From the NCBI GenBank assembly GCA_051884935.1, contig JBJEWG010000150.1:1-46434 (forward strand): a stretch of DNA of 46,434 nucleotides. The letters are read 5' to 3'. The stretch is from Kiritimatiellia bacterium. Lineage in GTDB: Bacteria; Verrucomicrobiota; Kiritimatiellia; RFP12; UBA1067. The position numbers and the translations under genes were made by a program. This document shows, piece by piece, positions 3,181-44,015 of the stretch (position 1 is its first letter; every line of letters starts with the position of its first letter). Under the pieces are notes generated by a model that was not told the DNA's origin, did not search any database, and was given only the letters and a program-made list of their open reading frames with translations.

Positions 3181-3936
3181 GTGGGCGCGTCCGATCCCAT
3201 CGGCTTCTTCGACAGCGGCGTCGGCGGGCTCTGCATCCGCGACGCCGTTCGCGCGCTTCTGCCCCGCGAGGACACCGTCTACATCGCCGACTCGGCGAAC
3301 TGCCCCTACGGGAACAAGCCCGCCGAGGAGATTCGCGCGCTGGCGCGGGGCCACGTGCGGTTTCTGCTGGCGCGGCACTGCAAGATGGTGGTCGTGGCGT
3401 GCAACACGGCGACGGCGGCGGCCATCGACGCGCTACGGGCGGAGTGGCCCGAGATCCCGTTCGTGGGCATGGAGCCGGCGGTGAAGCCGGCGGCGCTGCG
3501 CTCGCGGACGGGCGTGGTGGGCGTGTTGGCGACGCAGGGGACGTTCAACGGGCGCCTGTATCAAGAGACGCGCGCGCGGTGCGCGAAGCGGACGACGGTG
3601 CTGACCGTGGTGGCCGACGAGTTCGTCACCCTCGTGGAGCGGGGCGAGCTGGAGGGGGCGCGCGCCGAGGCGATTGTCCGCGCGAAGGTCGAGCCGCTTC
3701 TGGCGGCGGGGGCCGATCATCTCGTGTTGGGGTGCACGCACTTTCCGCATCTGGGGCCCCTCATCGCGCGTGTGGCGGCAGGGCGCGCGGCCCTCGTCGA
3801 ACCGTCTGCGGCCGTGGCGCGGCAGGTGCGTCGGCTGCTGGCGGCCCGCGGCGCCCTGAACGAAGCCGGCGGCGCGTCCCACGAATTCATTCGCACGGGG
3901 CGGCCACAGCCCTCTGGAGTTTTGGTATACTCCTAG
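3181..3936 (+). CDS. murI: Glutamate racemase
   Basis: Motifs FFDSGVGG, VVACNTATA and LGCTHFP. I chose the in-frame GTG at 3181, just after the upstream stop; the track ORF starts at 3091. Confidence 0.9.
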   Translation: MGASDPIGFFDSGVGGLCIRDAVRALLPREDTVYIADSANCPYGNKPAEEIRALARGHVRFLLARHCKMVVVACNTATAAAIDALRAEWPEIPFVGMEPAVKPAALRSRTGVVGVLATQGTFNGRLYQETRARCAKRTTVLTVVADEFVTLVERGELEGARAEAIVRAKVEPLLAAGADHLVLGCTHFPHLGPLIARVAAGRAALVEPSAAVARQVRRLLAARGALNEAGGASHEFIRTGRPQPSGVLVYS

Positions 3937-3986: not shown

Positions 3987-5591
3987 ATGCAGTTCAACCT
4001 CAGCAGAAGAGGGTTCCTCGGTGCCTCCGCCGGCTTCGCGCTGGCCGGTGGGTACACTTCGTATGGCGCCATCGCGCACAAGCCCGGCCAGAAAGTCAAG
4101 CTCGCCGCCGTGGGCGTGATGGGCAAGGGCTTCAGCGACTGGATGCCGATGGTGCAGAGCGGTTATGCCGAGATGGTCGCGTTCTGCGATGCGGACGCCA
4201 ACGCCATCAACGCCGCCGCCGGCGCGATTGCCGACCAGAAGAAAAAGGGCAAGCTTCCGGCCGACTACATGGACCCCAAGAAGGTGCCGTTCTACACGGA
4301 CTACCGCAAGCTGCTCGACGACTGCGCGAAGCTCGGCGTCGAGGCGATGACCATCTCCACGCCGGACCACGTGCACGCCCCCGTCGCCATCCAGGCGATG
4401 AAGATGGGCATCCACGTCTACGTGCAGAAGCCGCTCGTGCGGACGCTCTGGGAGCTCGACTACTTCAACCGCACGGCGAAGGAGAACGGCGTCATCACCC
4501 AGATGGGCAACCAGGGCTCGTCCCTCGACTCGATGCGCCGCTGCACGGAGGTGCTCCAGAGCGGCATCCTCGGCGAAGTGAAGGAAGTTCACGTGTGGAC
4601 GAACCGCCCCGTGTGGCCGCAGGGCAAGGCCGTGGCCGACTGGGTGAAGGGCCACCCGCAGGGCGACCCCGTCCGCAAGGGTCTCAACTGGGACGCCTGG
4701 CTCGCGACGGCGGCCGAGCGTCCGTTCCTCGACCAGTACCCCAAGGACGCGCCCGTGTACGACCCCTGGGGAATCGGCAAGAACGTGTACCACGCCTTCA
4801 CGTGGCGCGGCTTCTACGACTTCGGCGCCGGCGCCTTCGGCGACATGGCGTGCCACACGATGAACCTGCCCTTCCGCGGCCTTGAGCTTGGCGGCGTGAA
4901 ATCGGCGGAGTGCATCCAGATCGAGGAGCTGAACGACGTCGCCTATCCGATGAAGTCGATCGTCAAGCTCGTCTACAAGGAGCGCACCGGCCGCTTCGGC
5001 GGCAACGTCGGCAAGACGCTGCCCGAGGTCACGCTCTTCTGGTATGACGGCGGCAACTTCGAGAAGCCCGGCAAGAGCGGCAACAAGCCGAAGGCCGACC
5101 TCATGCCCAAGGTCGTCAAGACCTTCGGCGAGGTGCCGGATACCGGCTGCTACATCATCGGCAGCAAGGGCGCGGTGCTCATGCAGGACGACTACGGCGC
5201 CAAGTGCGCGATCGCACTGAACGACGAGGAGAAGTTCGTCGATGTGTTCCAGCACGAGGGCGCGAAGGCCGTCGCGCGTTCGATTCCGTTCCGCACGGAG
5301 GCGAGTGCCGTCCTCGGCAAGTCCTCGGTTCAGATGTCCGGCTTCGGCCAGGGCCAGTACATCGAGTTCATGCAGGCCATCAACGGCGAGGGCACGGTCT
5401 ACAAGCAGACGAACTCCCGCTGCTTCTCCGACATCGAGTACTCCATCCCGCAGATGGAGGGCATCCTCGTCGGCTGCGTCGCCCAGCGCGTCCCGGGCAA
5501 GCTCAACTGGTGCTCGAAGAAGCAGGCGTTCGACAGCCAGGCCGCGAACGCATTCGTCCGTCCCTTCATCCGCAAGGGCTTCGAGTTCTAA
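3987..5591 (+). CDS. Gfo/Idh/MocA-family oxidoreductase with twin-arginine signal
   Basis: ATG at 3987 preceded by GAAAGGAAG. N-terminus MQFNLSRRGFLGASAG is a TAT motif. Rossmann segment VKLAAVGVMGKG. The longer track ORF from 3399 is an upstream run-on. Confidence 0.9.
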   Translation: MQFNLSRRGFLGASAGFALAGGYTSYGAIAHKPGQKVKLAAVGVMGKGFSDWMPMVQSGYAEMVAFCDADANAINAAAGAIADQKKKGKLPADYMDPKKVPFYTDYRKLLDDCAKLGVEAMTISTPDHVHAPVAIQAMKMGIHVYVQKPLVRTLWELDYFNRTAKENGVITQMGNQGSSLDSMRRCTEVLQSGILGEVKEVHVWTNRPVWPQGKAVADWVKGHPQGDPVRKGLNWDAWLATAAERPFLDQYPKDAPVYDPWGIGKNVYHAFTWRGFYDFGAGAFGDMACHTMNLPFRGLELGGVKSAECIQIEELNDVAYPMKSIVKLVYKERTGRFGGNVGKTLPEVTLFWYDGGNFEKPGKSGNKPKADLMPKVVKTFGEVPDTGCYIIGSKGAVLMQDDYGAKCAIALNDEEKFVDVFQHEGAKAVARSIPFRTEASAVLGKSSVQMSGFGQGQYIEFMQAINGEGTVYKQTNSRCFSDIEYSIPQMEGILVGCVAQRVPGKLNWCSKKQAFDSQAANAFVRPFIRKGFEF

Positions 5592-5612
5592 TCCATCCTT
5601 CAACGGATGCGC

Positions 5613-5657
5613 AAACGGGGCCACGGCGATTCGCCGTGGCCCCGTTTCCTTTACACT
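5613..5657 (+). terminator. Rho-independent terminator of the oxidoreductase gene
   Basis: Perfect 17-bp palindromic arms, aaacggggccacggcga (5613-5629) and tcgccgtggccccgttt (5631-5647), followed by a T-rich cctttacact. Confidence 0.7.
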
Positions 5658-5926
5658 CACCTTCCCGTCGCCCATATGACACCCGTCAATGATGGACAAC
5701 GTTTCACGCCGAATCCCCCCGCCTGCCCCAACCTTCCGCGCCGCAGTTGTGCAGATTTACACAGTGACGGCATCCGTCGTGCCACGCAAATGAAGGGTAG
5801 ACGTGAGCGGCGGCTCGGGCGGAATCTCATCAAAGGCCTCCGGCCACACGGCCACACGAGCGGGTACGAACCGAGAGGTGGCCCACCTCTCGCCGACATC
5901 CTATCATACCAGAGGCGACAGGCGAT

Positions 5927-6146
5927 GCAATCTCCTAGGCGATTCTGAATTCCACTGGGCAGTGGAATCTAGTCTACTGCCGAGTAGAATAAATTCTACT
6001 GCCCAGTAGAATCCCATCCAGTGCCCAGTAAAACTCGTAACCGCTTAGGCACCCCCGCACAGCCTCCTAGGCGAAAGTACACTCCCACCTAGCCCACCCC
6101 ACGCCCCCACCTAGACCAATCCGCGCACCCACCTAGACGAAGCCCC
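5927..6146. repeat. Ten tandem 22-bp units in strict phase (4 palindromic units plus 6 CTAG-type units)
   Basis: Palindromes ATTCYACTG-NN-CAGTRGAAT start at 5949, 5971, 5993 and 6015. CTAG occurs at 5935, 6067, 6089, 6111 and 6133, with TTAG at 6045, always at unit offset 9-12. Confidence 0.85.
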
Positions 6147-6413
6147 ATCCCGCCCCTGTAAACCGGTCTTGTACCACTTACCTATAATGAGGTATATGGC
6201 TAACAGAAGTATCGGCAGAATCCTTCCCTTGAGGATGTTCTGGACCAACCCTCCGAGCAATCCTCCAACAGTCCCAATGCTCGAACCGAATTTCTTCAGC
6301 TCTTTTCCCGCGTCGTTGACCTGCGCCGTCAACTGTTTCGCCTACTGAGTGACATCGGAGAAACCGCTTCCCTGCGCGGCGCTCTTGAGCAGAATGTTTA
6401 CAATCCCGTTCAT
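6111..6413 (-). pseudogene. Truncated copy of the N-terminus of the tape-measure-like membrane protein encoded at 27636; carries an in-frame TAG
   Basis: MNGIVNILLKSAAQGSGF is identical to the 27636 gene. TAG at 6342-6344 replaces the CAG (Q) of the other copy. The frame continues AKQLTAQVNDAGKELKKF...ILPILLLAIYLIIGKW and then reads into the 22-bp repeat tract. Confidence 0.6.
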
Positions 6414-6452
6414 ACTGCGGATGCCTTCGATAGATGATAGAATCCGAACGCA

Positions 6453-6671
6453 ATGGCGAGAAGCGGCGTAAAGATCAGATGGATGCAGGTCCCGGGCGAG
6501 AGGACTCCGGCCAGGAAGAAGGCCAAAACGGAACCCGAGTGGACGGCGCACGACACCTGGGAAGCGATTTCCGGGCTTCTCGTGCTTGCGTTAATGATTG
6601 CACCGATCGTCCTTCTGTTCTGGTTCTGGCTAACGCACGCAGACCCGAATCGTCCACTACGCTTCCCCTAG
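6453..6671 (+). CDS. Small single-pass membrane protein (module copy 1)
   Basis: 72-aa ORF with one hydrophobic helix, ISGLLVLALMIAPIVLLFWFWL. Same position and orientation as the 27664 ORF in module copy 2. Confidence 0.3.
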   Translation: MARSGVKIRWMQVPGERTPARKKAKTEPEWTAHDTWEAISGLLVLALMIAPIVLLFWFWLTHADPNRPLRFP

Positions 6672-6975: not shown

Positions 6976-8981
6976 CTACAACAGTTCCAGGATTCCAAGC
7001 CCTTTCAGATAAGTATAGTTACTGTTATACCATTCACGCCTACGGGTCTGATCTTCGTCGCTACCCATTGGGATATAAATTACCATGCCTTGGCGTGCGC
7101 GTGTAAGCAACACACGATATGCATTCTTCAGATAAAGACGATCATCTTCAGAATTGATCCTCTTCCAACGATTACCATTGAACCTATGGTAATTCCACAC
7201 ACCATCAACATAACGAAAGTCTGCGTCCCACGCGACAATGGAATAATCCAATTCAAGTCCTTGAATATCAAACTCCGTTACGACGTCCTCCAGGGCGTAA
7301 CTAGAGCGGACATCATCCTTTCCATTCAAGAACCAGTTGGCAACGGAGATTTTGTTTTTCACAAAAACCCCGTCGGTTTTCAGACGCAAAGCTCCACTGC
7401 TCGCAAGAAGTCCACAACGGGTAGTACCCTGGCAGCGTTCCTTGACCCAATTTTTTGCTTTATCCAAGTCTCGAGTAATGACAATGGGGTACTTACTCTG
7501 AATAAGCCCATAAAGTCGCTTTGCCTCCTGCGCATTAACATCTAGCAGTGCCTTTACAAATGCAGCTAGATCAGGAGTACGAAAAGATCGGGCCGAGGTA
7601 TCTAGATGAATATCTTCTCGCTCATAAACATTCCGCAAACCGCCAATCATCTCATCCCACTTTCGATTCCGACGATATTCTTCATCGTTAAGCTGAGGGG
7701 TAACATATACATCCCAGTCGGGAGATGAACGACGAAGGGAATCAAACCACTCTGGTAGACCAGCCTCACCAGTGTTGATCTCTTGTCCACCGCCAACCAG
7801 ACAAATCACAACCGCCCAATCATTATGACGGTCCATCGTACTGATCAGAAACTCTGGCTCACTCTGAGAGAAATCAGGTACGTGCCTTTTCTGTCGCATG
7901 AATCGAGCGATCTGGTCTTTGGTCCATGCACGCTGGGCCTCATCGAAAATAACGACATGTTCTGGCGGGATATCGGCATTGCCCACGTAACAATTACGAT
8001 AACGGTGAATCATTTGAATGAATGCGGAGACACTACGCAGCGCGTCATCCTTGCGAATACGATGAGCATGCCGTTTCTCCCGCTCAATATTGTCCCGAGC
8101 CAGCGCTTCCCGCAAAACGGTCACCAACGGAAAGTTTCCAGAAAGAAATACAGCACGCTCACCATCCTTCGCGTTGGAACGCTGAATGGCAATGTCCAAA
8201 CCAACCAGTGTCTTCCCCGCTCCAGGGACACCGGTCACAAAACAGATAGATTTTCGTTTCTTCGTTTTGCTATGCTCGACGATTTGGTTGATTGCATCTG
8301 CGGTAATGGTCAAATTCTTCGCGCCAGCATCGCTACGAGTGATATCGTGTACATTATGTCCACGAAACAACGCCTGCGCTGCCTCCACAATAGTCGGTGT
8401 GGGGAAATATGCGGATTTTTCCCACGCAACATAGTCAAAAGGCGGTTCATCGTACCGTTCAACAATATGAAGAATTGAATATCTGATATTTTCTGTATTA
8501 CAGCGAACCGGCTCAAGGATGCGCTCCCGCTCCTGTAGTTCGTTTGGAACGCACGGTGCACAAGTAGATATCATCATGGGTACTAACAATTTATTCTGGC
8601 TTCCCCTTTGAAAATTACGCAGGTCAAGTGCGTAATCATAGACTTGGTCATATGTACTTTGACGATATTCCTTATCACCACACTTGAATTCCAGTAGGAA
8701 CACAATACCTTTATGAAGAACAACCACGTCAACGCGCTTACCCATCCTTGGAATGGTGTACTCAAATAGAATCCGACCCTCTGAAAAATCACTGAGTTGG
8801 TTCTTAAGAATGCCCACTTCCTCTCCACTTCCTCTTCCCAAGTATTACTTTGTTGTATTGGGTTTTCGGCAGCACTACTATTGGAGTGAATAGCGCCAAG
8901 AATCTCATTGTCTTTTTGTTGCAGAAAATCGTGGATGGCGGCAGAATAATAAGCTCGCTGATTGCGCATAGTTGTCACCAT
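6976..8981 (-). pseudogene. DUF2075-family (Schlafen-like/SF1-type) ATPase with N-terminal nuclease-like domain, disrupted by an 11-bp tandem duplication
   Basis: Two track ORFs (8583-8981 and 6976-8841) are successive parts of one protein: MRNQRAYYSAAIHDFLQQKDNEILG...NTWEEEV then GILKNQL...FEYTIPRMGKRVDVVVL...Walker A GVPGAGKT. CCACTTCCTCT occurs twice in tandem (8814-8824 and 8825-8835). Removing one copy gives a 665-codon open frame. Low GC. Confidence 0.8.
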
Positions 8982-26580: not shown

Positions 26581-27636
26581 TCCCGCTCCGCCTCGAGCTT
26601 CCTCTCGGCGGCCTCGCGGGCGGCCTTGAGCTCGTCCTCTGCCTTCATGCGCTTCGCCTTCTCGTCGAGCTGGAGGGCCTCCGCGCGCTTGTCGAGGACG
26701 CCCTGCTGGCGGTCGAACTCGTCGCGCTCGGCCTCGATCCTGTCCAGCGCCTGCTCGAAGTCGAGCCGCTTCGCGCGCGCGGCGTCCACGCGCCCCGTGA
26801 GCTCCTTGTAGCGGTCTGACTTCATGAAGCCCTCGACGGCGCGGTCTCCGGCTATCCGGCGGTCCGCGTCGGATGCCGTCATATACGCCAGCGCGCCGTT
26901 TCCGGCGACGTATGCCGTTCCGAGCGCGGACTTCTCGGCCTGTTCGCGCACGTCCCGGACGGCCTTCGCGAGCGCGTCCTCCTCGGCCTTGACGACCTTC
27001 TGCGCGTCCTCCCAGTCCTTCCACCCCGCGTCCACGGCGGCCTCCGCGTCCCTCCTCTTGCGCGCGAGCTCGTCGAGCTCGCCGGCCATCTTCGTGCGGG
27101 CGGCGTTGGCGTCCGATTCGCCGATCTCCCTTTGGATGCGCTCGGCCGCGCCCGCGTCGCCGCGCCGCATGGCCTCGATCTTCTGGATTTCGAGCTTCTT
27201 CTTCGCGAGCTCGTTGGTGGCGTCCACCTCCTCCTTGATGGCGCGGAGGCGGTCGTTCGATTCCCTGATGGATGCCTGGCGCGCCTGCTCGGTCTTCTCG
27301 ATGAGTCCGTCGATGGACTTCATGCGCTCCTCGTGCGCCTTCTTCTCGGCCTCCGCGATCGCCTTCGCCGCCTCCTCGGCTGAGTTCTTCCACGCCATGA
27401 ACGCATCGACGCCAATACATAACGCCCCAAATGCCGCCCTTGAGGACATTCTGAATGAAATCTCCAACAAGGCCGCCGAATGTGCCAAGATGAGAACTAA
27501 ATTTCTTGATCGAATTCCCCGCTTCATTGACCTGAGCTGTCAACTGCTTCGCCTGCTGCGCGGTGTCTGCGAACCCGCTTCCCTGCGCGGCGCTCTTGAG
27601 CAGAATGTTTACAATGCCATTCATATTGCCACACAA
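26385..27636 (-). pseudogene. Tape-measure-like membrane-anchored coiled-coil protein; frameshifted at about 27420, with the 3' end lost at the 26580 junction
   Basis: The N-terminal 70 aa (low GC) are in one frame: MNGIVNILLKSAAQGSGFADTAQQAKQL...NVLKGGIWG. The coiled coil is in another frame: DAFMAWKNSAEEAAKAIAEAEKK...KLEAEREKANL. The architecture parallels the 17425 tape measure (GAFRNWRKSIAETEKK). Confidence 0.55.
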
Positions 27637-27663
27637 TCGTATAAATGCTAAAATCCAATCGTT

Positions 27664-27852
27664 GTGAATGACAGCAGAAACAAAATGCGCAATGCGACTT
27701 CGGACGAAGAGGAGCAGCTTCTCGTCTTACATGCTGTTTTCGCAATATTTCTTCTGATTGCGCTGATCCTGTTCGTGTGGCTCATCCCATATAAATCCCC
27801 AGCAGACAGGGTATTCCTCCTGCCGCACGAGAGAATCCTCTTCTCGAAGTAG
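27664..27852 (+). CDS. Small single-pass membrane protein (module copy 2)
   Basis: 62 aa with TM helix LVLHAVFAIFLLIALILFVWLI. Low GC. Divergent from the 27636 gene. Confidence 0.35.
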   Translation: MNDSRNKMRNATSDEEEQLLVLHAVFAIFLLIALILFVWLIPYKSPADRVFLLPHERILFSK

Positions 27853-27856
27853 CCCG

Positions 27857-28138
27857 TCACGTCGCGGTCTCCTGTTCCTTCTTGAGGCGGCGGACGATCT
27901 CGCGGAGGGTGAGGTCGTATTCGGCGCGGAGGCGGGCCTCGTCGCGGTGCGGCATTCTGCCGAGCTCGACGGCGGCGGCGGAGCAGATGCGGTCGAGCCG
28001 CGAGGGGGTCTCGGCCTTGATCTCATCCGGCGCGACGTGGAGGACGGCGCAGGCCTCCGCGAGGACGCTCTCCAGGGCGGCGAGGTTGCGCGCGGCGGCA
28101 TCCGTCGAGGCGCGGCGGGCCGGCGTGTATCGAAACAT
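27857..28138 (-). CDS. Small hypothetical protein (module copy 2)
   Basis: 93-aa ORF with high GC3. C-terminus is similar to that of the 6703-6909 ORF. Confidence 0.4.
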   Translation of the reverse strand: MFRYTPARRASTDAAARNLAALESVLAEACAVLHVAPDEIKAETPSRLDRICSAAAVELGRMPHRDEARLRAEYDLTLREIVRRLKKEQETAT

Positions 28139-28346
28139 ACAGTTTCGAGCATACTACCCCTTCCCGCGATTTCCCGTTCCCAACGCTCTTTCCGCCTAGA
28201 CAAGATGCCTACACCACGGACAACTCAAGCGCAAGGTCTATTATTTTATCGCCCACGATATCCACCATGTTGAGCAAGAGATAACACAGGCACCCTATTT
28301 CTTTACACTAAGGCATAGGGTGGCCAAACAACAGCGGATAGGGGTA

Positions 28347-40622: not shown

Positions 40623-40832
40623 CGAGCCCTCGTTCCTTTCCTATGGTCTCCCCAGTGCCGCCAGTCTAGCATCTTCCCCGCCGCCCTGTCAACCGCCCCT
40701 TCTCGCCGAATCTTCCAAAACCACGCGGCGAGGCGGACGTTTTGCCCCGGAGGGGGCGGTTCCGTGGTGCGCGACACTCGGTCAAATGGTGCGCATCACC
40801 CCGGTCAGATGCTCGGACGATTTGGAGTTTGG

Positions 40833-40986
40833 TTGCGCAAGAGAATGAATTCAGTTGCGCAACTGAATTTGTTCACTTGCGCAAGAGAATTTATTTGGTT
40901 GCGCAAGAGAATTCCGGATGACGGGGGGAGAATGCCGTTGGGTCGGTGGTGATTTGCCGTTTCGTCGGGGGGAGAATGCCGCAGCC
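40833..40986. repeat. Seven tandem 22-bp units in phase (4 x TTGCGCAAGAGAAT type, 3 x GGGGAGAATGCCG type)
   Basis: TTGCGCAA starts at 40833, 40855, 40877 and 40899. Units at 40921, 40943 and 40965 are related to each other (40921 and 40965 match at 16 of 22 positions). Confidence 0.85.
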
Positions 40987-41096: not shown

Positions 41097-43808
41097 CTAC
41101 CGCAGGATCACGGCGAAGCCGTCGCGACCGAGGGCGATGCGGAAGCGCGTGTAGGCGGCGCCGTCGTAGGTGACCTCGTCGGTCTCGATCTGCGCGCGGC
41201 ACCCCTTCAGCGGCCTCCGCACGTTGATCCGCCCCGCGAGCTTCGCCGCCGTCTCGGCGGGCACCGTGCAGAGCGGCACGCGCAGCGTCCCCGTCTCGAA
41301 CGCCTCGTACCCGTCGATGCGCACCTCCAGCGCCCTGCCCTCGGGCAGAATGAACGACCCCTCGGTGTCTTCGCCGCGCGCGACATAGCGATTGAAGAGC
41401 CCGTATTCCGCCACGCCCGCATCCGCCGGACGGGCATCCACCGCCAATCCGCCGCCTTCGCCGAAGACGAGCTTCAGCTTCGCGAACGCCGTCGTCGAGA
41501 GCGGCTTCACCCAGCCCTCCACCACGCGCAGAATGCCGCGCTTGCCGATCTGGTCGTTGGTGGCGTCCCACGTTGATGAGCCGATCACGGACGTGCCGCC
41601 GAGCGCCAGCGTGCCCGCGCCCTCCTTCCAGATGGCGCCCGTGAAGTAGAGCATCGTCTTGAGCCTGAACTCGATCCCCTCGCCCACGTCGATGCCGGCC
41701 TTCCAGCCCGCGTTCCGGATGTGGCGGTTCGGCGTCTCGTAGGTCATCGACGCGAGCGGCCTCAGGTACGTGTTGTTCTCAAGCCGGATCCACTCGCCCT
41801 GCGGGGCCGCCGGCGAACCGCCGAGCGCCTCGGGGCGCGTGAAGGCAAGCGTCGCCTCGCGCGGCAGACTCGGAGAGGGATCGCGGTCCTTCGAGTTCAC
41901 GATGAGCTTGCCCGTCCACGCCGAGTTGTCGCCCGCGAGCGTGTGCTCCGTCACGTTCGTCACCTTGACGCCCGAATCGTCATAGGGCTGTGCGGTCAGG
42001 CTTCCCGTCCCGCGGATGTCGCTCTCGATCCACAGCCGCTGGTACGCGACGCCATGCAGCACCGCCGCCGCCGATCCGGCGGCCTCCGGCAGAACGACGG
42101 TCCCGGCGATGACCTGGTTCGTCACGGTCTCGTCCACACCCGCCGCGTTGATGCGCGTGTTGCCCCACAGCACGAAGTTCGAGATCGTGAGATGCGCGTT
42201 CTTGTGGGCCAGCCAGGTCCCGTTTCCGCGCAGAGCGAGGGACGCGCCGGGGAAGACGAGTGGTTGGCGTCCACTGCGGCCGCCGGGCGAGGTCCGCAAG
42301 GTGCGGGCTGCACCGAACGGAACGATATAGTCCTTGTCCGCGCTCGGCGCGAGGCCGTCCGACCAGGTGACGGCATCGGTGATGTACCAGTTCCCGCCGT
42401 TGATGGTATTGTTGTTCTTCGCGGCTTCGACGAGACTGACCTCCTTCCGCACCCGCACGGAGACCGTCTGCATGCCATCCTCCTCCGCGAACAGCAGCTC
42501 GGTGCGGGGGACGGGATTATCCACGGCGTCCAGCTTCAGCACGAAGTCCGCCGCCGTCAGCGCGCGGACGGCGACGGGGATGCGAGCCACCGCCACGGGC
42601 TGCCCGGTGAGAATCGTCTCCACGTCGCCGTTGAGCCGAATCGTGTAGGGCCCCGCGCCCAGCGTGCAGGTCTCGTCAAGCGTCACCGCGCCCACCTGGC
42701 CGTCCCTGACCATCCCCGAGAAGCCGACGCCGTCCGGCAGGGCAAGCCCCGTCAGCGTCAAGCCCGCCGCGCCGAACGGCTCGACGACGAAGGCCGCGCC
42801 CGGGTTGACGGTGATCGAGGGCAGTCCGTTCGGGGCGGAGAAGCCGTCCGAGATCGCGAGCGTGCCCTGTTCCACGATCCACGCCCCCGTCGCCGTGGAG
42901 GCGGCGCAGAGGCGAACCGTCCCGGTGCCCATCTTGCGCAGCGCGCCCGCGCCCGTCACGGGCATCCCGAGCGACCAGGTCTCGTTGGAGATCGTCGTGA
43001 CGCGCGACTCGCCTTCGCCCAGCGTCACGCCGCGGTTCACCGGCGCGAACGGGGCCTCCGCGCAGAGCTCGGGCGAGACGGCGAGCGCGCCGCCGTTTGA
43101 AAGCTGCACCGCGTCCATCCGCATCGCATCGGGCGCGGCGCCGATGGCGGTCGGGCTCTCGAAGATCAGGATGACGCCGGCCTTCTGCTCGGCCCCACTG
43201 CGGTTGTAGACCCTCCACACGCCCTGATACTGCGAGTTGTCCCCGCGCACCCGCATCCGGCCAGTTGGGTTATTGGCATCGGCCCCATAGCCATGCGACA
43301 GATCGACGATTGCGTTCGGGCCGCCCACAAGGCTGCCGTCGTTGATCCAGACATTGCTCCTGCCGCCATTGACGCCGAACCGGAGCCGGGAGTTGACCTT
43401 GAAGTTGCCGCCGATGCGGCACGTCACCTCTTCATAGGAGATCGACCACAGAATCTCGTCCGTGGACCCCTCCTTGCCGAAGACGGCATCCGGGAATTCC
43501 ACATAGTTGCTGCCGCATGTCTTGTGCGCAAGACTCCCGCCGGTGAACTCGATTCGGTCGCCTGCGAACACATAGGTGTTGGCGCCGTCCTTGATGTCGG
43601 GCGTGCGGAACGTCGAGCCCGACCACACGTAGACATTGCCGGCGCACGGGGCCTCGCCGTTCGGCCAGTCATTTCCCGTATTGAAGGAGGTCTTGCCGCC
43701 GGCGTCGCCTTTGCCGTTGTTGGAAATCGTCGCCCCCTGCGCCAGGAACACAGACAAGCCCACAGCCGCGCAGGCGAGCGCGCACACCACTTCGTTTCGA
43801 CTTCTCAT
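41097..43808 (-). CDS. Autotransporter-associated beta-strand repeat protein (secreted or surface)
   Basis: Signal peptide after MRSRNEV (AAGGAG ribosome-binding site). Recurrent GxGTxxL...G...V..GTLA units. Confidence 0.75.
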   Translation of the reverse strand: MRSRNEVVCALACAAVGLSVFLAQGATISNNGKGDAGGKTSFNTGNDWPNGEAPCAGNVYVWSGSTFRTPDIKDGANTYVFAGDRIEFTGGSLAHKTCGSNYVEFPDAVFGKEGSTDEILWSISYEEVTCRIGGNFKVNSRLRFGVNGGRSNVWINDGSLVGGPNAIVDLSHGYGADANNPTGRMRVRGDNSQYQGVWRVYNRSGAEQKAGVILIFESPTAIGAAPDAMRMDAVQLSNGGALAVSPELCAEAPFAPVNRGVTLGEGESRVTTISNETWSLGMPVTGAGALRKMGTGTVRLCAASTATGAWIVEQGTLAISDGFSAPNGLPSITVNPGAAFVVEPFGAAGLTLTGLALPDGVGFSGMVRDGQVGAVTLDETCTLGAGPYTIRLNGDVETILTGQPVAVARIPVAVRALTAADFVLKLDAVDNPVPRTELLFAEEDGMQTVSVRVRKEVSLVEAAKNNNTINGGNWYITDAVTWSDGLAPSADKDYIVPFGAARTLRTSPGGRSGRQPLVFPGASLALRGNGTWLAHKNAHLTISNFVLWGNTRINAAGVDETVTNQVIAGTVVLPEAAGSAAAVLHGVAYQRLWIESDIRGTGSLTAQPYDDSGVKVTNVTEHTLAGDNSAWTGKLIVNSKDRDPSPSLPREATLAFTRPEALGGSPAAPQGEWIRLENNTYLRPLASMTYETPNRHIRNAGWKAGIDVGEGIEFRLKTMLYFTGAIWKEGAGTLALGGTSVIGSSTWDATNDQIGKRGILRVVEGWVKPLSTTAFAKLKLVFGEGGGLAVDARPADAGVAEYGLFNRYVARGEDTEGSFILPEGRALEVRIDGYEAFETGTLRVPLCTVPAETAAKLAGRINVRRPLKGCRAQIETDEVTYDGAAYTRFRIALGRDGFAVILR

Positions 43809-44015
43809 CTCGTCTCCTTGGGTTGTTGGTTCGGCGGCGACACTAACCGCCACTTCCTTCAACTTTCGAGCCGATTATAGCATTTTTTTTTTCCTGCCAA
43901 GAGGAAAGTCATCGGGAAGTTGTCGCGCGGCCCTCGGGCAGGATGCTGCGCATCAGGTGGGCAGGGTGTCGGCGACGGGAGACCGGCCCCTCCAGTCCGG
44001 ACGCGCGGATTCGCC

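Follow-up and report, generated by a model that had tools for sequence, protein, structure and literature searches.

A strictly phased array of ten 22-bp units beside a decayed Mu-like prophage in a Kiritimatiellia bacterium: a candidate orphaned protein-binding array

A 220-bp stretch of non-coding DNA at positions 5927-6146 (array 1) consists of ten 22-bp units in a single register. It lies on a contig of a gut Kiritimatiellia bacterium that was analyzed over its whole length of 46,434 nucleotides (the window). A second ten-unit array of the same layout (array 2) is present on the same contig (Table 1). The contig is chromosomal, with an RNB-domain (RNase R-type) gene and ABC-transporter genes, and it also carries a gene that we take to be murI from reading its translation. 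Its relatives are gut and rumen Kiritimatiellae. Array 1 is tentatively interpreted as a cooperative, helically phased, putative protein-binding array upstream of a promoter, which is now orphaned; we assign this reading a probability of roughly 0.4.

Repeat anatomy of the two arrays

An earlier reading of the sequence alone (the sequence-only reading) had placed the unit starts of array 1 at 5927+22n. Every coordinate that it gave was re-read and found to be correct. The lag-22 autocorrelation, a check which it had proposed, was 0.551, as compared to 0.276 ± 0.031 for dinucleotide shuffles (z = 9). None of 2000 shuffles reached the observed value, even at their best lag between 5 and 59, and TRF called both sub-arrays of array 1 with a period of 22. 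The strict 22-bp phasing and the presence of two unit families are real. The units are ordered as one CTAG-core unit, four dyad units and five CTAG-core units.

Table 1. Coordinates of the two arrays and of the features next to array 1.
Feature	Position	Strand	Remarks
Gfo/Idh/MocA gene	3987-5591		left of array 1
Perfect 17-1-17 hairpin, terminator of the Gfo/Idh/MocA gene	5613-5647	+	similarity to L012-L014 stops here
Left CTAG-core unit (CTCCTAGGCGA)	5927-5948	+	shares the register of the CTAG units on the right
Four abutting 20-bp dyad units, ATTCYACTG-NN-CAGTRGAAT	5949-6036		GC 47%, versus 66-72% in the background
Five direct CTAG-core units, consensus cCnCCTAGnC	6037-6146	+	top strand C-rich, G-poor
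Spacer from array end to start of paralog homology	6147-6226	+	46% GC; holds TATAAT 6183-6188
Decayed small ORF	6111-6413	-	in-frame TAG 6342-6344; paralog of the N-terminus of 27636->26385
Second ten-unit 22-bp array (array 2)	40766-40985		lag-22 autocorrelation 0.54, z 8.8

Two of the dyads (5949-5968 and 5993-6012) are 9-2-9 palindromes without a mismatch, while 7 of 9 positions pair in the unit at 5971 and 4 of 9 in the unit at 6015. With 2-bp linkers between the dyads, eight half-sites result, one per 11 bp and in alternating orientation. The junctions between neighboring dyads are dyads themselves (GAAT-NN-ATTC), and a larger imperfect dyad (5934-5990/5993-6049) comprises the four dyads and both neighboring units. 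Between the units at 5949 and 5993, C:G is exchanged for T:A on both arms, so the symmetry is preserved. A chain of at least three such 20-bp palindromes at 22-bp spacing was found in array 1 only when 1.16 Mb of Kiritimatiellae DNA was searched.

CTAG was confirmed at 5935, 6067, 6089, 6111 and 6133 and TTAG at 6045, as was the recurrence of the 11-mer CTCCTAGGCGA at 5932 and 6064, i.e., at a spacing of 132 bp or 6 x 22 bp. A seventh CTAG, at 5969, is off-register, and a possible degenerate eleventh unit follows at 6147-6168. The mean pairwise identity of the six CTAG-family units is only 59%. Their invariant columns (6, 8, 10-12 and 14) cluster within 9 of the 22 columns (p ~0.01). When the consensus sequences of the two families are compared in register, about 5 of 22 columns are shared, which is the level expected by chance. 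On the contig, CTAG is depleted about 7-fold, with 21 sites observed and 139 expected from composition (43 by a Markov estimate), and 6 of these 21 sites fall in array 1. The scarcity suggests CTAG-directed restriction or repair pressure in the organism. Many of the remaining CTAG sites of the contig fall at ORF boundaries listed by the ORF finder. In the right CTAG block, C makes up 49% of the top strand and G 16%. A canonical G-quadruplex pattern (GGGGG-CGT-GGGG-T-GGG-CTAGGT-GGG) occurs at 6081-6107 on the minus strand, where the complement of the CTAG units is rich in G.

A Logan contig of 931 bp (L336, run SRR30616840) is 100% identical to the window over 5463-6393. Array 1 is therefore not an assembly artefact, unless SRR30616840 is also the source data of the MAG. 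With regard to strain variation, this single Logan contig covers array 1 and is identical to the window; look-ups with the Gfo protein, the 72-aa ORF and P0121, which is 100% identical to a window protein, gave no record.

Among all 220-bp segments of the contig, a lag-22 autocorrelation of at least 0.42 was reached only by array 1 and array 2. Array 2 can be read in a single register as well. Its four dyad units (40832-40919), with TTGCGCAA at their centre, are preceded by two to three GGTGCGC units and followed by three GGGGGGAGAATGCCG units, and its G-rich flank units carry GAGAATGCCG. The GGTGCGC flank units resemble diverged copies of the central GTTGCGC units. Common to both arrays is the layout of four dyad units flanked by in-phase asymmetric units. 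The dyads of array 2 also share with array 1 the outer ATTC...GAAT, the GAAT-NN-ATTC junction and the 22-bp period. When 1.18 Mb of Kiritimatiellae DNA was searched for pairs of GAAT-NN-ATTC at 21-23 bp, with one mismatch allowed, such pairs turned up in the two arrays and nowhere else; about 0.15 pairs would be expected by chance, as estimated from the counts of this search. Beyond a motif of 10-18 bp, the two arrays cannot be aligned (z ~1).

Array 2 comes after the terminator of a PATR-repeat gene (41097-43862), with its C-rich side on the transcribed strand just past this terminator, and it abuts the sigma70-like promoter (TTGACA-18-TAGACT; 40692->40663, minus strand) of a heparinase-like gene. 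In five related loci, either a GH88-like gene or no gene at all stands between the heparinase-like gene and the neighboring 419-aa gene. Since the PATR gene and array 2 are absent from these five loci, they form a lineage-specific insert of 3.4 kb. No array matching array 2 was found at the other edge of the inserted segment. The sequence-only reading had considered that the motifs could prove to be a generic dispersed repeat without a positional link to mobile elements. The data go some way in this direction: a second array of the same architecture does lie beside an ordinary chromosomal gene, but this array, too, is located within a lineage-specific insert. Two candidate functions of array 2 were rejected. 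A dif-like site was dropped, as GGTGCGCATCA, which matches the XerC arm, is not followed by a XerD arm. A sigma54 enhancer was dropped as well, as no GG-N10-GC promoter was found on reading the sequence between array 2 and the gene start.

Genomic setting of array 1 and searches for related arrays

On the left side of array 1, the three most closely related genomes (L012-L014) resemble the contig at the DNA level only as far as 5642-5652, by the terminator of the Gfo/Idh/MocA gene. The relatives of this gene (88-92% identity) each diverge past the terminator, at ~5650. Because each relative continues differently after the terminator, neither an island boundary nor an empty site, from which a terminus (5'-TG...CA-3') with a short target duplication could be read, can be set. 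The GC skew switches its sign near 4-6 kb, being positive leftward, where no more than 5 kb of sequence is available, and negative over the remainder of the contig. This switch may reflect either a replication landmark or gene content.

On the right side, the small ORF 6413->6111, described before as a truncated gene that reads into the repeats, does read into array 1 and is interrupted by an in-frame stop. It shares 76% nucleotide identity with the N-terminus of gene 27636->26385 (6226-6418 versus 27437-27629). Since the homology ends at 6226, array 1 lies beyond a rearrangement junction. Neither viral contigs nor a collection of 5.8 billion proteins contained a relative of this ORF. Its paralog, a coiled-coil gene on the right margin of the phage cluster (26385-27636, minus strand), is apparently frameshifted near 27425, with about the first 70 codons in another frame. 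The N-terminal module of this gene and a divergent small membrane ORF (27660-27853) are duplicated at 6111-6671. Between array 1 and the terminase, a low-GC accessory gene for a Schlafen group 3/DUF2075-type helicase is located in DNA of 46% GC (6976-8981, minus strand). This gene is split by a frameshift, with the N-terminal part in ORF 8583-8981 and the remainder in 6976-8841.

The TATAAT in the spacer starts 37 bp past the end of array 1. It is one of two on the contig when both strands are counted, and the other is the -10 element of the PATR gene. No -35 hexamer was found for the TATAAT at 6183-6188, and no consensus promoter was called there.

A cluster of late phage genes, including those for a terminase and a Mu-like protease, starts at ~9100. 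Its earlier assignment to a transposable, Mu-like lineage was corroborated by the terminase relatives in IMG/VR (L345, L346 and L349), which carry the transposase phrog_310; L346 additionally has a MuB/TniB-like ATPase (phrog_296). As had been noted for the transposase, the prophage copy in the window lacks both the transposase and the MuB-like ATPase, and its early region is missing. No Rep, ParB, Par, HTH, RHH, integrase or transposase gene was recognizable on the contig with Pfam and PHROGs, in line with the sequence-only reading, and searching PHROGs with every small ORF around array 1 yielded nothing useful. In L345, L346 and L349, the transposase gene of the early region points leftward, away from the late genes, and so does the ATPase gene of L346. 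A candidate binder, the 98-aa ORF 27860-28153 at the prophage end, showed no sequence match in the PDB. AlphaFold predicted a three-helix bundle for it (pLDDT 69), and this model gave no significant Foldseek match and no DNA-binding fold. In L349, a related transposable phage, the 15-bp palindrome TTCCAAYSRTTGGAA occurs seven times, in two phased clusters of 31-bp period (3427-3510 and 4520-4640) located between the leftward transposase gene and the late genes. One of these clusters is contained in the 3' end of a weak HTH_31 ORF, and both flank two genes for secreted proteins (signal peptide/lipoprotein), followed by a terminator.

Homologs of array 1 were found neither in viral contigs nor in metagenome contigs, phage records or plasmid records, and BLAST against phages and plasmids gave no match to the array. 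Scans of viral sequences with the motifs of array 1 returned only chance matches or unrelated 22-bp phage arrays. A metagenome scan for three phased AGTRGAAT half-sites, a poorly chosen pattern, returned at least 120 unrelated 22-bp satellites; among the matches listed, none showed the palindrome or similarity to the window. The 46-kb contig contains no other copy of either motif of array 1, an inverted partner array included. The sole near-match, with one mismatch, is at 28192 in direct orientation and is within chance. In two viral contigs, L378 (1040-1130) and L399 (690-780), three to four 22-bp units with GAAT-NN-ATTC dyads were found. Since they lie inside lambda-O-like initiator genes, these arrays are origin iterons. 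An unrelated viral contig (L365, 7311-8239) contains a 67-bp tandem array of about 14 copies with two palindromes each (GGCAGTG...CTGCC and TGCGACAGGGTGTCGTA).

Three further assignments of array 1 were tried and rejected. CCRCCTAGAC, found at 6107/6129 and again at 28192, was considered as the direct repeat of an att site, but the match does not exceed chance. A MITE was dismissed for the dyad block 5934-6049 because a target duplication is missing and its termini match at only 13 of 20 positions. Type III antitoxin repeats have the wrong period, and no toxin gene is present.

The spacers of Kiritimatiellae are rich in short tandem repeats, and other 21-23-bp arrays occur in relatives. Tandem repeats of 7-8 bp were observed in orthologous spacers of L337 (5951-5969), L338 (5943-5969), L339 (5929-5966) and L340 (3169-3357 and 4612-4664). 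They are rich in TGA and TAG (GTTAGTT, GAAAGTT, GTTGAAAY, 15 copies of TGAAGGT, 7.6 copies of AATCTGA), and their copy number varies between two MAGs, with three in L337 and four in L338. Tandem repeats between co-directional genes look like a lineage-wide habit.

Proposed function and rival explanations

Under the preferred reading, array 1 would be an operator or upstream-activating region for a rightward promoter with the TATAAT at 6183-6188 as its -10 element. Each of the abutting dyad units would take one dimer. With alternating half-sites every 11 bp, all dimers would be placed on one side of the helix, and neighboring dimers could be in contact. The CTAG-core units, being in the same register, may be bound by a second factor or may be weaker copies for the same assembly, and they would extend this assembly to the expected position of the -35 element. 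The bound protein could either recruit RNA polymerase to the promoter lacking a -35 element or block RNA polymerase. Array 1 itself would be part of accessory or acquired DNA at the edge of the decayed transposable prophage. Since its regulator is not encoded on the contig, array 1 would either be served in trans, possibly by the factor of array 2, or be a relic.

Several observations argue for such a binding array. In both arrays, the phasing at two helical turns by far exceeds what chance would give, and the contig has no other such locus. Conservation is focused on the motif cores, with p ~0.01 for the CTAG family, the dyad symmetry has survived the two-sided change from C:G to T:A, and CTAG is retained although it is avoided about 7-fold. 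GAAT-NN-ATTC at 22-bp spacing is common to both arrays, and both lie just upstream of promoter elements directed away from them. Moreover, L349 carries its phased palindrome clusters beside a weak HTH ORF. The absence of a recognizable HTH or RHH gene from the contig weighs against the binding array, as does the 98-aa ORF without a DNA-binding match. No collection searched held a homologous array, so evolutionary conservation does not support it. In addition, the TATAAT lacks a -35 element, nothing but decayed sequence would be transcribed from the putative promoter, in antisense to the pseudo-ORF, and the two arrays are unalignable outside their short common motif. The many intergenic tandem repeats of the lineage raise the prior for a mutational by-product.

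Among the four candidates of the sequence-only reading (iterons, partition centromeres, stacked phage operators and transposase end-binding sites), stacked operators upstream of a promoter fit best, with regard to dyads and phasing, though not to an adjacent repressor gene. Known stacked phage operators include lambda OR/OL, coliphage 186 pR (three dyad operators about two turns apart, CI wheel) and the Mu O1-O3 operator/enhancer. They comprise three to four sites in the control region of temperate or transposable phages and are bound cooperatively on one face of the DNA. Array 1 resembles them by its side-by-side dyad-symmetric sites at about two turns, the nearby candidate promoter and the phage setting. 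It differs in that no repressor gene is adjacent, only 2 bp separate the 20-bp dyads, six more asymmetric CTAG-core units stand in register, and a look-alike exists at a chromosomal promoter. Phased activator arrays such as the PhoB pho boxes, OmpR F1-F3, the NtrC upstream sites and the DevR boxes (tandem) usually have two to four sites of one family. Contiguous sites at one or two turns, leading toward a weak or absent -35 element, are shared with array 1, whereas its ten units and two families are not. Mosaics such as BIME/REP and BOX are extragenic and combine palindromic units with short motifs, and array 1, with palindromic units and other motifs after a terminator, is similar in this respect. 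However, REP-type elements exist as many near-identical copies, whereas the two arrays on the contig have only a 10-bp motif in common.

The main rival of the binding array is a neutral minisatellite, which we regard as rather unlikely. Here, a 22-bp unit would have been amplified by slippage or unequal exchange in non-coding DNA at the rearrangement junction, and the sub-blocks would have diverged and been re-amplified. Because indels are absent, the units would stay in register without selection, and the strict register is thus explained cheaply. The abundance of tandem repeats in Kiritimatiellae spacers, including the difference in copy number between L337 and L338, and the other 21-23-bp arrays in relatives fit this explanation, and so do the position of array 1 among pseudogenes just beyond the homology breakpoint at 6226 and the GGTGCGC units of array 2, which look like diverged GTTGCGC copies. 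It accounts neither for the conservation of the cores nor for the parallel architecture. The two families of array 1 match in register only at chance level. Moreover, divergence is uneven with invariant motif cores, two-sided change keeps the dyad symmetry, and CTAG persists in a genome that avoids it. Two unlinked arrays have the same four-dyad layout and junction motif, and no chain of at least three 20-bp palindromes spaced 22 bp apart was found elsewhere in the 1.16 Mb. An undescribed class of elements, which we consider a doubtful proposal, would comprise about 220 bp and about ten 22-bp units in one register, with four abutting central dyads and asymmetric, strand-skewed flank units, at the borders of horizontally acquired Kiritimatiellia segments. 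Such elements would be bound by a host-encoded factor whose assembly would insulate or silence the acquired DNA, set its expression or provide a scaffold for its recombination. This class would be drawn from two loci on one contig.

Alternatively, array 1 might be the relic cis site of a lost replicon, i.e., an origin of the lambda-O or plasmid type, with an initiator wrapping the four dyad iterons, or a centromere of the ParR/ParG type, in either case with the genes of the element since deleted, which appears quite unlikely. Four dyad-symmetric units at about 22 bp, or two helical turns, correspond to the layout of ori-lambda, the GAAT-NN-ATTC arrays of L378 and L399 lie within lambda-O-like initiator genes, and the island is decayed with a 46% GC stretch nearby. 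However, neither a gene nor a remnant for an initiator, a helicase loader or partition was found. In contrast to ori-lambda, the low-GC stretch (6147-6226) that might be an A+T-rich unwinding region does not abut the dyads but lies 110 bp from them, and stops in all six frames across array 1 preclude its being part of an O-like gene. No DnaA box is present within 800 bp, the sister array is located at a chromosomal promoter, and phages of the Mu type, which replicate by transposition, do not require an origin. As for centromeres, each unit of the type II ParR-parC centromeres (pSK41, 20-bp repeats) takes a dimer of dimers, and a continuous protein-DNA superstructure is formed. Contiguous units of about 20 bp are common to these and array 1, which, unlike them, has no parM/parR operon (parA/parB are also absent), a chromosomal context and two unit families. 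The iteron and centromere candidates of the sequence-only reading have thus lost ground, given the missing initiator and partition genes, the lack of a nearby DnaA box and the chromosomal contig. A function in RNA or single-stranded DNA seems improbable. In that case, the hairpin stack of the dyads would stabilize or terminate transcripts, and the C-rich, G-poor block would be a Rho-loading site. Both strands of array 1 fold far better than shuffles (z of -5.3 and -5.6), but any array of DNA palindromes folds well, so these scores do not discriminate. Read-through from the upstream gene would run along the strand on which the block has 49% C and 16% G, and array 2 is likewise C-rich on the transcribed strand; yet a strong intrinsic terminator already stands 280 nt ahead of array 1. 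Searches for tRNA, tmRNA and Rfam families gave no match, and no homologs were found from which covariation could be drawn. Highly improbable, finally, are end-binding sites of a MuA- or TnsB-type transposase that mark the terminus of an element. The 22-bp units, the five contiguous direct CTAG units, which are asymmetric and recall the right end of Tn7, and the transposable lineage of the adjoining phage speak for such ends. This candidate of the sequence-only reading conflicts with the absence of an inverted partner or any other copy on the 46-kb contig (the match at 28192 being direct and at chance level), of a recognizable terminus and of a transposase or ATPase gene in the window, and with the dyad-symmetric central units, which transposase ends do not have. 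From the leftward transposase in L345, L346 and L349, the phage end would be expected beyond the early genes and not on the side of the terminase. As for the sister array, it lies beside one inserted gene only, and nothing at the other edge of that segment matches it.

Implications for Kiritimatiellia

Phased binding-site arrays are a well-known kind of element, and array 1 would be a long, composite case in a poorly known phylum. If the arrays are only products of slippage, they are a record of how strongly this clade tends to form tandem repeats. If they accompany the borders of acquired DNA throughout the genome, they would mark how the lineage controls or inserts foreign genes. If the arrays are bound cooperatively by a specific factor, they would be an unusually long and regular upstream control region for a bacterium, with ten units and two families of sites. 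They would then offer a way into the gene regulation of Kiritimatiellia, a lineage of uncultured gut bacteria with regulators that are largely uncharacterized.
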